Positions 42,547-45,812 of a stretch of 56,834 bases of DNA are shown here, in pieces (positions within the stretch are counted from its first letter, which is position 1; each line of letters opens with the position of its first letter). Where the stretch lies: positions 1 to 56,834 of the forward strand of contig JADHVV010000005.1 in assembly GCA_016783825.1 (NCBI GenBank), in the 5' to 3' direction. The notes under the pieces were generated by a model, which ran no database searches, was not told the DNA's origin, and worked only from the letters and a program-made list of their open reading frames with translations. This stretch comes from Candidatus Zhuqueibacterota bacterium. Its GTDB lineage: Bacteria; Zhuqueibacterota; Zhuqueibacteria; Thermofontimicrobiales; Thermofontimicrobiaceae. Position numbers and translations under genes: made by a program.

Positions 42547-43251
42547 CTATCCAAACATTTGTGAAAAACCAGCTGATATTAAAATAGTGATCAAAAATAA
42601 AACAGCCATGGTCCAGCCGGATTTTTTCATACTAAATTTATAAATGACCGCAAATCCGATGGCTAAAACGATGTACTGCCAGATAGCAAATATATCAAAA
42701 CCTTTGAGAATATTATAAACAAATGTTTTCGATTGATCAGCAGGTAAAAATGAAGCTATACTAAAGTGAACATCTGCTGTTTGTTTGGACAGAATTAATG
42801 GAATTCTCAGCAGCAACCCGAACATCCCGATAAGTGATGAATAAGTATAAACAGAAAACATCTTTTTGAATGTTGTTTGTCCGCCTAAAACGATATTTCC
42901 CACGAACCAAAAAATAAGCGCAAAAATAAGAAGCATAATTGGTACTACTATAACAGCGCCAATTGGTCCAGAAATTTTACCTATCTTTTCACCCATTGCC
43001 ATTGCCTGATCGATTTCATCATCAGACATGCCTCGCTCCTCAAACTTTACTCGTTGTTTTTCCATTTGTTCGGGCATAGTTATTGGCAAAGTAACCATTG
43101 TAAAAATAAGGGTAATAAGAACGACAACAATAAGCGGCACCAACCAATCTGGTTTTCTATCAATGGATTCAAAAGAATCTCTTGGTGAGAAGAAAACACC
43201 GACTAATTTTTGAACGACACTCAAATCTTTACTTGTGTTATTCTCTTCCAT
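42547..43251 (-). CDS. Yip1-family membrane protein
   Basis: FFSP...F......P.W..P pattern, about five TM helices. Confidence 0.8.
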   Translation of the reverse strand: MEENNTSKDLSVVQKLVGVFFSPRDSFESIDRKPDWLVPLIVVVLITLIFTMVTLPITMPEQMEKQRVKFEERGMSDDEIDQAMAMGEKIGKISGPIGAVIVVPIMLLIFALIFWFVGNIVLGGQTTFKKMFSVYTYSSLIGMFGLLLRIPLILSKQTADVHFSIASFLPADQSKTFVYNILKGFDIFAIWQYIVLAIGFAVIYKFSMKKSGWTMAVLFLITILISAGFSQMFG

Positions 43252-43417
43252 TTTATCCTCCGGTTTTTAAAATTCATTAGATTAAGGTTATACTGAAAAG
43301 GTACTACGTTGATTTGGAATTTAAAGTTGTTTGACCATTAGGAACGGAATATAACATTAAAAGTTTCAAAAATAAACATAGCGAAAATATTTGAATTATG
43401 CAAGATATATTCGTTAA

Positions 43418-43621
43418 CTAAATGTCCCCCAAAAATTTAGGACAAAAGCTCTTCAAATCCCATAAAATAAGGATCTTTTGGGGATTGGAATGTGAAAATA
43501 AAATTTTGAAAAGTTAACACTATTTTGATAGAAAAATATAATTTATATGCCGTAAGGATACTATTTACAATACAGCTGATTTTTGAAATCCTAAATTTTA
43601 AAAAAAATGGGGGTCATTCAG
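43418..43621. mobile_element. MITE with 11-bp TSD
   Basis: CTAAATGTCCCCCA / TGGGGGTCATTCAG; ATATTCGTTAA on both flanks. Confidence 0.85.
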
Positions 43622-43940
43622 ATATTCGTTAAGGGTTAAAATGTAACAATCATCTAAAATATTTCTTTTGACTGTTATTATCTGTTACCATAAATGCATG
43701 GCGCAAAGAGCATGGCGCATGGCGTAAAATATGCGTTTAGCACCATGCTCTATGCGCCTTGCTTTTCTTGACAGGCCTCTTTACTTAAGAAAAGGAATGT
43801 TTTATATGTTACAAAATAAACCTCAACGAGTATAATATCAAATTATCTGAATCTTTTTATTTTATACTACATCTAATTGATTTGAATTTAAAAACCTTTT
43901 TTTTATAAACTGGAACAATTAATTTCGGAGACTTTTATCA

Positions 43941-44177
43941 GTGAAACATTTTAAGAAAATTGCAGTTGTTGTAATAGGCGCAGCATTAGGATTTGCGTAC
44001 TATCGATTTGTTGGCTGCCAGTCCGGAGTTTGTCCGTTAACAAGCAATCCCTGGATAAGCACCGGTTATGGCGCATTAATTGGTTTTGTTTTTACCATTA
44101 ACGGTAAACAGAAGGAACAAACTCTTAACGGAAAACAGGGCGAGCAAAAAAACGATCAGGAAAAGGAGAGTAATTAA
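43941..44177 (+). CDS. DUF6132-like small membrane protein (CxxxxC)
   Basis: GA.LGFAYY.FVGC.SG.CPLTSNP..S..YG. Confidence 0.8.
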   Translation: MKHFKKIAVVVIGAALGFAYYRFVGCQSGVCPLTSNPWISTGYGALIGFVFTINGKQKEQTLNGKQGEQKNDQEKESN

Positions 44178-44342
44178 ATGGACTTTTGGGAAATAATCAT
44201 ATTTTTCGCTGCTTATTTTGTTGTAATGAAATATATCCTGCCCAAAATGGGTATGCCAACCTGAATGTCCACATCATGCGACCTTCCGGGTGAAAGTCAA
44301 AAAAAATCTGAAACTGAAATTATCGAAAATAAAAATGAATAA
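44178..44342 (+). CDS. Candidate 54-aa membrane selenoprotein (UxxxxC)
   Basis: AGGAG RBS; MDFWEIIIFFAAYFVVMKYILPKMGMPT-TGA(44262)-MSTSCDLPG...NE*; SECIS-like stem 44280-44298. Confidence 0.6.
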
Positions 44343-44475
44343 TTGATTCAGTTCAAAAAAAATCTAAACCTCGAATTACACTAATTTCACTGATTATTTC
44401 TTTTTAATTCGTGCAATTCGTGTAAATTAGTGGTTTATCAGTGAACTTATTATTTAATGGAGGATTGTTTAAGAA

Positions 44476-44685
44476 ATGCCGATTTATGAATACCGTTGTA
44501 ACAAATGTGATCACAAGTTTGAAATGTTTCAAAGTATTGGCGCATCAAATGAATCATTGAATTGCCCAAACTGTAATGAACCAAAACCCGATAGAATTTT
44601 TTCTGTTTTTGGTTCTGCCAGTGGTGGTGATTCAGCATTCAGTGGTGGTGGATGCAGCCCATCCAGCCCATTTTCGTGAGGTTAG
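44476..44685 (+). CDS. FmdB-family zinc ribbon protein, candidate C-terminal Sec (...PFS-U-G*)
   Basis: MPIYEYRC..C...CP.C; TGA at 44677 then GGT TAG; hairpin TAAAGC-AGTTT-GCTTTA downstream. Confidence 0.75.
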
Positions 44686-44887
44686 AAACAATAAAGCAGT
44701 TTGCTTTAAATTTGATTTGATAGGAATGTTATTATTATCTTTTTAAAAATTTTAAAATTAATCATCCGGCATTATTGAAAAGCAGCAGTTGTAGTAGCAG
44801 GAAAAATTTTGACGTACGATTATTACTGCCGCTGCTTCTGCTACTTGCAACACACTATGCTGGGAATTCTAAATATATGGAGGTATC

Positions 44888-45475
44888 ATGAAAAAATTAT
44901 CAACTATGTTTTTAATATTAGCAATCGTCTTTGTCTGGGGCTGTTCGGGTACTGATAGTGAATCAATCGCTCAGGACAGTAAAGAGAAGAAAGTTGAGAA
45001 AGCGCATGAAGAAGTAGTTTGGACAACTTTTGATGAAGGTCTGGCAAAAGGCGTCAAAGAGAATAAAAATATCATTGTGGATTTCTACACCGATTGGTGT
45101 CACTGGTGTAAAGTGATGGATGAAAAAACATTCGGTGAGAAAAAAGTAGCTGCCAAATTAAAAGAAAGATTTGCCACTGTTCGGCTTAATGCTGAAAGTA
45201 ACAGTGAGTTTGCAAATTATAAAGGAAAGAAATATTCAAACATGGAGTTGACAAGAGCTTTCCAGGTTACAGGATTTCCTTCTTTAGCATTTCTCAGCCC
45301 TGAAAAAGAAATCATTACTGTTATTCCCGGCTACGTTCCGGCAGATCAATTTTATCATATTCTCGACTTCATTGATAAAGAATGCTATAAAAAGAAAATG
45401 ACGCTTGAAGAATTCATCAAGAAAAAAGGTGAATGCGAAGAATCTAAAAAAGAAGAGTCAAAGAATGAGAAATAA
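44888..45475 (+). CDS. Thioredoxin-fold lipoprotein (SoxW/DUF255-like)
   Basis: Lipobox VWGC, DFYTDWCHWC, GFP. Confidence 0.88.
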   Translation: MKKLSTMFLILAIVFVWGCSGTDSESIAQDSKEKKVEKAHEEVVWTTFDEGLAKGVKENKNIIVDFYTDWCHWCKVMDEKTFGEKKVAAKLKERFATVRLNAESNSEFANYKGKKYSNMELTRAFQVTGFPSLAFLSPEKEIITVIPGYVPADQFYHILDFIDKECYKKKMTLEEFIKKKGECEESKKEESKNEK

Positions 45476-45599
45476 AGTCATTGCGACAAATTAAGAATCA
45501 GCATTAAAAGGCAAAATGAATTATTGGCATAATAATCATTTTGCCTTTTTTTTTGTCAAATTATTTTGACTTCAATCATTTTGACTTTGAATTTTTTAA

Positions 45600-45812
45600 T
45601 CCAAATAATGCAATAGCCACGAAGACACGAAGGTTTTAATACCCGAAGGGTGCACAAAGAATTAAATTATAATTAGTTATGAATACATATTTAGCAAACT
45701 TTTTTCATTTTTTTATACATCAACTTTACAACAGAACTTATGTTTTTCCTTTGTGTTTCTTGGTGGCTTTGTGTCTTTGTGGCAACTCTTTTTTTCTACT
45801 GCATTATCTGGG
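45600..45812. mobile_element. MITE, same TIR family as 26777-26973
   Basis: TCCAAATAATGCAATAG / CTACTGCATTATCTGGG; TTTAA TSD. Confidence 0.8.

Follow-up and report, generated by a model that had tools for sequence, protein, structure and literature searches.

The window analysed here is a 56,834-nucleotide (nt) stretch of forward-strand DNA from a Candidatus Zhuqueibacterota bacterium (GenBank assembly GCA_016783825.1, contig JADHVV010000005.1, positions 1 to 56,834), and at 44178–44342, on the forward strand as are the other genes and gene-borne features of the window described below, it carries what is in all likelihood (roughly nine chances in ten) a genuine selenoprotein gene. The gene would encode a single-pass membrane protein of 54 residues, followed by a stop codon, with a transmembrane (TM) helix, an L-P-K-M-G-x-P-T-U-M-S-x-x-C motif and a charged tail. 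Comparison with homologous loci shows one gene whose internal UGA codon would be decoded as selenocysteine (Sec, U) by way of a selenocysteine insertion sequence (SECIS) hairpin lying inside the open reading frame (ORF). The insertion mechanism is the known one: the ribosome would translate a 28-codon N-terminal segment containing the TM helix, insert Sec instead of terminating at the UGA (44262–44264), where the hairpin within the following codons would recruit SelB and the Sec-tRNA, and proceed through M-S-x-x-C into the charged, disordered tail.

A sequence-only reading of the window had proposed a small membrane selenoprotein at this position, and the gene layout on which it drew is as it described. 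The strong ribosome-binding site is a Shine–Dalgarno sequence, AAGGAG (44163–44168), read directly 9 nt upstream of the ATG at 44178, and this ATG directly abuts the TAA of an upstream DUF6132 gene. A hydrophobic ORF of 28 codons then leads to the TGA, past which the frame remains open for the 25 codons claimed (an ATG and 24 further sense codons) up to a TAA at 44340–44342. The Cys noted five residues past the TGA is C34, encoded here by TGC at 44277–44279; it is invariant in the family alignment and forms with the putative Sec (U29) a U-x4-C motif. Support for the candidate comes from conservation of the TGA column and of the residues past it, from homologs with Cys in place of Sec, among them one with TGC in a genome of the same class, from a covarying SECIS hairpin and from the Sec machinery of the genome.

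Conservation of the UGA, the downstream codons and the hairpin

The read-through protein (P0001) was used in a six-frame, stop-reading search of 60 relatives, and all 47 matches at E below 1e-3 contain exactly one TGA each and align onward to query residues 38–54. In nearly all of 30 loci, a GGAG-type site precedes a start placed 28 codons upstream of the TGA, and in every one the frame stays open for 20–38 codons past the TGA. In the protein alignment (A2), P22, G25, T28, U29 and C34 are invariant and L21, M30 and S31 are at least 90% conserved. The conservation beyond the TGA for which the sequence-only reading had suggested looking is thus present, with M30, S31 and C34 invariant or nearly so.

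A profile search with A2 matched 100 of 167 genomes of the window's phylum, and TGA occupies the Sec column in 98 of the 100 carriers. The selenocysteine synthase gene selA was found in 130 of the 167 genomes and in 95 of the 100 carriers, which places the family in 95 of 130 selA-positive genomes (the 167 include two genomes flagged as unpublished, G159 and G163, both selA-positive and neither listed as a carrier); the five carriers without a selA match are 73–95% complete. Two further samples extend this picture. One, comprising 301 genomes of the phylum around a Desulfobacteraceae metagenome-assembled genome (MAG), gave matches in 128 genomes, about four in ten, with TGA in 129 of 132 listed matches and the TGA column confirmed in 11 Sec-form loci. 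The other, comprising 201 genomes around a Planctomycetaceae MAG, gave matches in 17 genomes, with TGA at the Sec column in 16 of the 17.

The codons past the TGA behave as coding sequence. Among 43 sequences drawn from two phyla, Ser31 has a TCN codon in 30 and an AGY codon in 10, so that the residue persists across two codon families, and the codon for Cys34 is TGC in 26 and TGT in 17. In the first five codons past the TGA (+1 to +5), variation is greatest at third positions (entropy 1.31 vs 0.96 and 0.61).

The 45 nt beginning with the TGA align without gaps, and RNAalifold, given no hint, predicts within them a 6-bp stem (columns 20–25 with 31–36). In the window this conserved stem corresponds to 44281–44286 paired with 44292–44297, interrupted by a C·A mismatch in this genome, and encloses the apical loop CGGGU (44287–44291) within the hairpin GACCTTC/CGGGT/GAAAGTC (44280–44298). 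The family hairpin as a whole spans 17–35 nt past the UGA, with its stem at 17–22 and 28–33 nt. Pairing was counted for a 7-pair stem in 30 sequences of the window's phylum and for the 6-pair stem in the 43 sequences of two phyla. In these two sets, respectively, 86.2% and 93.0% of cells are paired, compared with 33–54% and 33–49% when the partners are slid by 1–3 columns; compensatory changes occur at 5 of 7 and 6 of 6 pairs; and cells changed on both sides number 29 and 77 against shuffled means of 11.2 and 23.6, with 0 of 500 shuffles reaching the covariation score in either set. Among the 30 sequences, pair 21:35 is CG in 19, UA in 9 and UG in 2 and is broken in none, while pair 22:34 is CG in 10, GC in 9 and UA in 5. 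Kinship among the sequences inflates the shuffle tests; the slid controls and the wholly different stems of the second phylum point the same way.

The apical loop is of the type described for bacterial SECIS (bSECIS) elements. Of the 43 sequences, 41 have G at loop column 27, and at column 28 there are 37 with G and 6 with T; the distance from the UGA to the apical loop is 22 nt, with no insertion or deletion, in all 43. The loop measures 5 nt, shortened to 3 nt in sequences that pair column 26 with column 30, on a stem of 6–7 bp in the family and of 3 + 3 bp in the window. In the available text of a 2026 review, bSECIS elements are given an apical loop of 3–9 nt on an upper stem of 4–16 bp, a G in the first two loop positions that is usually followed by G or U, 16–37 nt between UGA and apical loop, and a minimum free energy (MFE) of -7.5 kcal/mol or lower (PMC13188914). 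Three of these four features, namely the loop and stem size, the loop G followed by G or U, and the UGA–loop distance, are found here; the energy is considered below.

The machinery for Sec insertion is encoded in the same genome. The window's assembly (G000, 82.8% complete) carries selA, selB, selD and tRNA-Sec, all four above curated cut-offs, with selB (371 bits) and selA (576 bits) adjacent on contig C191 and the tRNA-Sec scoring 63.5 bits, above the Rfam threshold. Two selD genes are present (G000:C97:4758-5678, L010, and G000:C258:11487-12413, L009); one of them is itself a selenoprotein gene, with TGA at a G-U site, a 9-bp SECIS stem and an AAGA loop 19 nt past the UGA, and the other is without TGA, lies inside a 766-residue open frame and may encode a fusion protein. 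TGA is otherwise an ordinary stop codon in this genome: the neighbouring FmdB gene ends in a TGA where its homologs terminate.

Cysteine-containing forms and rival accounts of the locus

Homologs with Cys at the TGA position, whose presence the sequence-only reading had proposed as a check, were found at three levels. Within the class of the window, genome G126 (locus L052) carries TGC at the Sec column and no stop, although selA is present; by eye, the stem positions of the hairpin no longer pair in this Cys-form. When species genomes were scanned with a Cys-containing back-translation of the motif, 12 loci emerged, of which 10 are usable Cys-forms, from MAGs titled Bacteroidota, Myxococcales, Deltaproteobacteria, Chloroflexota, Planctomycetes and others, and selA was not found in four of the five Cys-form genomes tested. 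We infer that, in genomes without a selA match, the Cys-for-Sec versions may fill the same role.

The third level is that of protein databases. A word-indexed homolog search reached only P0002, an ortholog 82% identical to the window's protein, and the family came into view only with an exhaustive profile search: HMMER with A2 against 1.84 billion cluster representatives returned 771 matches at E up to 1e-3. In the 150 best of these representatives, the residue at the Sec column is Cys in about 104 (102 recognized by regular expression and 2 regular-expression mis-hits read by eye), which are true Cys-forms, and Trp in 28, where a gene caller had called the TGA as Trp. Eight are cut exactly at the Sec column, being Sec-forms ended at the TGA as products of 28–31 residues, and the remainder have Gly (3), Ser (3) or Arg (2) or are stray, spurious matches (2). 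The three Gly cases may or may not derive from TGA. Of 102 Cys-forms, 89 have the second Cys at the x4 spacing, as do 27 of 28 Trp-called forms. The Cys-forms conserve Met30 just as well, which indicates that this Met belongs to the motif and does not serve as a start codon. The Trp-substituted and TGA-truncated artefact sequences pass for natural ones in large protein collections.

A sub-group of the family departs from the pattern. In locus L053 (G015:C54) and in the database members P0053 and P0074, an extra residue lies between the redox positions (M-N-P-x-x-C), and the Sec column holds TAA in G015 and Arg in P0053 and P0074, which suggests a lineage that has lost Sec.

Three other accounts of the locus were weighed against a Sec-decoded gene. 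The sequence-only reading had itself raised the alternative of a true stop at the TGA, which would end a 28-residue membrane micropeptide, followed by a restart at the adjacent ATG to yield a 25-residue peptide. This account draws on the ATG that directly follows the TGA in 39 of the 43 sequences, on the short products that public gene callers emit for 8 of the 150 best representatives and on the TAA at the Sec codon of G015; it is very hard to reconcile with the continuous proteins that carry Cys at this column in about 104 of those representatives and in G126, with CTC or ACG, neither a start codon, as the next codon in 2 of the 43, with the retention of Met30 in the Cys-forms, or with a covarying hairpin that has a bSECIS-type loop at the canonical distance in a family with selA in 95 of 100 carriers, and we regard it as highly improbable. 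Equally improbable is the proposal that the protein ends at the TGA and that the downstream conservation reflects an RNA element acting on FmdB, for instance an attenuator or a regulatory hairpin. A conserved hairpin upstream of a tightly linked FmdB gene is what such an element would look like, yet the stretch from TGA to hairpin is conserved at the amino-acid level, with third positions the most variable and the frame open in all 30 loci, and the peptide motif occurs without the hairpin in Cys-forms (by eye, in G126 only). A third account accepts a genuine selenoprotein family and supposes that the gene is decaying or poorly expressed in this particular genome, as its mismatched stem and an inserted repeat might imply: the window's hairpin is among the weakest of the 43, and the 133-nt spacer with inverted repeats that separates the gene from FmdB is unique among 28 FmdB-bearing loci. 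Against decay, the ORF is unbroken before and after the TGA with all invariant residues kept, P0002 keeps the same frame, two other loci (L027 and L033) are mismatched at the same stem position and otherwise intact, and the identical sequence occurs in contigs of two studies, either of which may be the source of this assembly. Decay is unlikely, with a better claim than the other two.

Several observations weigh against a functional Sec-decoded gene in this window. The window's hairpin, with its C·A mismatch in mid-stem, has an energy of only -3.3 kcal/mol, and as stand-alone evidence it had to be dropped, since the MFE fold of 44262–44305 is a different, shifted hairpin at -6.1 kcal/mol, which 87 of 200 shuffles equal or better (z = -0.09). 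Both values miss the bSECIS limit, which is passed by 17 of the 43 family members, a rough comparison in that the 22-nt segment folded here may be shorter than that used by bSECISearch. The stem-loop of the sequence-only reading therefore holds in its position, with the loop 22 nt past the UGA, and not in its strength, and support for a SECIS element in the window comes only through comparison with homologous loci. Weak hairpin energies may also be one reason that SECIS-based pipelines miss the family. The counts given above are inflated in that related genomes are not independent, and 6 of the 11 Sec-form loci taken from the Desulfobacteraceae-centred sample are near-identical. The TAA of G015, which has selA, is the single case among the 100 phylum carrier genomes of a homolog ending in TAA or TAG at this codon, the outcome that the sequence-only reading had named as contrary to its proposal. 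No RNA-recorded run contains the stretch, and two runs labelled metatranscriptomic (flagged 'probably DNA') contain parts of the DUF6132, FmdB and thioredoxin-like genes and not the Sec ORF.

Topology, gene neighbourhood and candidate function

The TM helix named in the sequence-only reading is also predicted by AlphaFold2, which, run on A2, returns one helix over residues 3–23 (44184–44246; predicted local distance difference test, pLDDT, ~89) followed by an unstructured tail, with a mean pLDDT of 68. The protein is predicted to have its N-terminus outside and the U-x4-C motif at the cytoplasmic face of the membrane. This topology is favored by the charge bias (positive-inside rule), with a mean net charge over 30 sequences of -1.07 in the N-terminal flank and +1.87 in the 12 residues past the helix, and by a C-terminal thioredoxin fusion. 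The fusion is found in the database member P0144 (208 aa), which continues in frame into a thioredoxin domain with a WCGPC motif; whether real or a gene-calling run-on, it is a possible Rosetta-stone link to thioredoxin.

In the window, the gene has three neighbours of note. Upstream lies the DUF6132 gene (43941–44177; PF19628, E = 6.2e-12), whose product is a small membrane protein of two helices that has an invariant G-C-x-S/T-G-x-C-P loop. Downstream, past the spacer (44343–44475), is an FmdB-family zinc ribbon (44476–44679; PF09723, 7.7e-15; TIGR02605, 6.9e-17) with two CxxC pairs, a Ser/Gly linker and an ordinary TGA stop, and then a thioredoxin-like protein of the DsbH/DUF255 type (44888–45475; Thioredoxin_2, 3.3e-18; Thioredox_DsbH, 6e-16) with a WCHWCK motif, whose hydrophobic N-terminus followed by Cys makes, by eye, a candidate lipoprotein signal peptide. 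In the alignment of FmdB partners (A3), the four zinc-ribbon Cys residues and a fifth Cys are invariant, the latter in a C-terminal C-x3-4-G-x-F-T/S tail past the Ser/Gly linker. Neither the Pfam nor the TIGRFAM zinc-ribbon model includes this tail.

These associations recur across the phylum, with FmdB the neighbour linked most tightly. FmdB adjoins the gene in 29 of 34 phylum loci, usually starting between -14 and +20 nt from its stop, with exceptions in the window (133 nt) and L054 (51 nt). The DUF6132 motif gene is found in 23 of the 34 loci, abutting upstream in 15, further upstream in 1 and downstream past FmdB in 7, and a DsbH-like thioredoxin-fold gene lies downstream in 14. In the Desulfobacteraceae-centred sample, 8 of the 11 Sec-form loci have FmdB close by (7 downstream, 1 upstream). 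At the Cys-form loci, 6 of 10 adjoin genes for metallo-beta-lactamase (MBL)–rhodanese fusions, YgaP-type rhodaneses, TauE, thioredoxin or ArsR, as annotated by Pfam: MBL–rhodanese fusions at L060, L061 and L063; rhodanese with a YgaP-like TM domain at L060, L063 and L065; TauE at L061 and L063; thioredoxin at L056, L058 and L063; a DsbD_TM–thioredoxin at L058; and an ArsR-type regulator at L065. Genes with DsbD_TM also stand beside L073 and L075, so that three loci with L058 share this Pfam domain. MBL–rhodanese fusions and TauE under ArsR-type repressors are described, in the available text of two papers, as sulfide/persulfide detoxification operons (PMC5823870, PMC12934615).

The recurrence of thioredoxin, DsbD_TM, rhodanese, persulfide-dioxygenase-type and TauE neighbours points to thiol–disulfide or sulfane-sulfur chemistry. 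It is enticing to speculate that the helix anchors the protein in the membrane while the U-x4-C pair cycles between a selenol/thiol and a selenenylsulfide state, with the co-transcribed DUF6132 protein, the translationally coupled FmdB protein, whose fifth Cys would sit on a flexible arm, and the thioredoxin-like protein as likely partners. A membrane-tethered U-x4-C relay for redox or sulfane-sulfur transfer is the function that we put forward, tentatively and at a little under even odds.

The main rival to such a relay is the handling of metals, in which U-x4-C would act like MerT- or CopZ-type carriers, binding or passing on selenium or a soft metal or metalloid (Hg, Cu, As), and would not take part in thiol or sulfur redox chemistry. 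Close Sec/Cys pairs on flexible, membrane-adjacent segments are typical of metal carriers, the neighbours are themselves Cys-rich (the zinc ribbon with its fifth Cys and the DUF6132 C-x4-C-P loop), and a MerT-related selenoprotein group and metal-linked CU motifs are described in the available part of a preprint (10.1101/2022.07.06.499078). No mer, cop or ars transporter or reductase gene, however, lies beside any annotated locus, where the recurring genes are instead those for thioredoxins, DsbD_TM, rhodanese, MBL–rhodanese fusions and TauE; the ArsR regulator at L065 is not decisive, because the ArsR family holds both sulfide and metal sensors. Metal handling therefore appears improbable, though it is the functional alternative to be taken most seriously. 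The relay has difficulties of its own. No partner is universal: FmdB is found at none of the 10 Cys-form loci and adjoins only 1 of 17 Planctomycetaceae-centred loci, the latter finding being the reason that it was dropped as a universal or Sec-specific partner; the DUF6132 motif is found in 0 of 12 loci of the Desulfobacteraceae-centred sample; and 4 of the 10 Cys-form loci (L052, L057, L062 and L064) have unrelated Pfam-annotated neighbours, L052 with a DUF6132-motif ORF downstream. The predicted topology also conflicts with a simple chain, in that U-x4-C would be cytoplasmic and the DUF6132 loop and the thioredoxin-like protein, by reading, periplasmic, and a direct relay among all four proteins is accordingly not straightforward. 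A complex prediction for the window's FmdB protein with P0002 (W at the Sec column, run without alignments) scored 0.01 against a mark of 0.34 and was not used either way.

The spacers of the window have features of their own. In 27 of 28 sister loci that have FmdB, the spacer to it is 20 nt or less; that of the window contains 21-nt inverted repeats (44376–44396 and 44405–44425) and a short repeated element, 44366–44407, that matches other contigs with unlike flanks in two metagenome runs, and it looks like a small inserted repeat element. In the spacer between the FmdB and thioredoxin-like genes, 35 nt (44817–44851) match several contigs with unlike flanks in runs X2, X3 and X13 and may be a second short dispersed repeat. 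An Rfam scan of 43200–45600 gave nothing near a gathering score, and a terminator scan of 43200–45700 found none.

Relation to known families and implications

The description of the gene as unannotated holds, in that public gene calls truncate it or read its TGA as Trp and that the read-through protein, searched against Pfam-A and NCBIfam (release 20, June 2026) at E up to 1, has 0 NCBIfam and 0 significant Pfam matches. Thirty-five stand-alone Cys-forms likewise have 0 NCBIfam matches and, at E up to 0.01, a single sub-threshold Pfam match, of P0006 to PF04602 (17.3 bits against a cut-off of 25). In the ESM Atlas, the Cys-form P0005 leads only to an unnamed cluster at 0.87. Database sources call members 'hypothetical protein' or nothing, and an NCBI-sourced member is a 29-residue truncation.

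Bacterial selenoprotein families now total 119 (PMC13188914), and none of the 119 in Table 1 of that review has a U-x4-C motif or a single-helix architecture. The available text of the deep-Sep paper (2025) reports the addition of nine selenoprotein families, and the NCBIfam models of the three domain-less families named there do not match the read-through protein. Literature searches on selenoproteins, DUF6132, FmdB and small membrane proteins, main texts being covered, found no description of the family, and the motif strings as printed in alignments gave no relevant literature match among the matches listed. A widespread family that is apparently uncatalogued as a selenoprotein is thus probable, and with nearly the same assurance we consider it an undescribed, cross-phylum selenoprotein family of single-pass membrane proteins of about 55 residues with a T-U-M-S-x-x-C site. 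It would have stayed invisible so far because gene callers cut it at 28 residues or read its UGA as Trp.

The closest architectural analogy lies outside the bacteria. SELENOK and SELENOS are small eukaryotic proteins with one N-terminal TM helix and Sec in a disordered cytosolic tail, near the extreme C-terminus, and their SECIS is a kink-turn element in the 3' untranslated region. There is no sequence relationship to the family described here, in which the putative Sec lies 6–10 residues past the helix, in a U-x4-C motif. With bacterial genes of the bSECIS type, as set out in the Zhang and Gladyshev consensus (PMC13188914), the gene shares the in-frame UGA, a hairpin inside the ORF with G followed by G or U in a loop of 3–5 nt, a UGA–loop distance of 22 nt, the existence of Cys-homologs and the presence of selA, selB, selD and tRNA-Sec; it differs in a stem that is short (6–7 bp) and often weaker than the consensus energy limit.

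Resemblances to its own neighbours are of a more general kind. DUF6132 (PF19628) is also small and membrane-bound, and in it too (C/U)-x-S/T-x-x-C comes straight after a Gly/aromatic-rich helix; unlike the present family, it has two helices, an invariant C-P-x-T-S-N-P continuation and Cys, not Sec, in every copy seen here. Homology between the two was considered and dropped, as hhalign aligns both motifs at a probability of only 7%. The FmdB family (TIGR02605/PF09723) is likewise small and Cys-rich, a thiol-related redox role has been suggested for FmdB, and rare Sec-containing members from ocean metagenomes are reported in the available text of an earlier study (PMC2398784); the selenoprotein described here, in contrast, is not an FmdB protein, and its FmdB partner has Cys and no Sec. 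KCU-star/DUF466, OS_HP3 with its dual CXXC and TsoA with LULAxC (PMC13188914) are similar in being short proteins with Sec/Cys motifs that are typically truncated in databases, and differ in the motifs themselves (CU, RxU and LULAxC, compared with T-U-M-S-x-x-C here). The models NF033934, NF041197 and NF045695 do not match the read-through protein at E up to 1. To our knowledge, none of these three families has a membrane helix.

Additions to the known bacterial selenoprotein families still come in small numbers. If the present one is real, it could be among the commonest bacterial selenoproteins and would be the first bacterial counterpart of the tail-type membrane selenoproteins. If it has been missed so far, the selenoproteome sizes of whole phyla have been underestimated, and annotation pipelines have been emitting 28-residue fragments or Trp artefacts in its place. 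At 165 nt with its own SECIS, the gene would be a compact and convenient natural reporter for Sec insertion. Together with FmdB and DUF6132, the protein would make up a new membrane-tethered selenenylsulfide module, one that would place both orphan families in a functional context, offer a first way into the function of FmdB-type zinc ribbons and DUF6132 proteins, and link them to genes of thiol–disulfide and reactive-sulfur chemistry.

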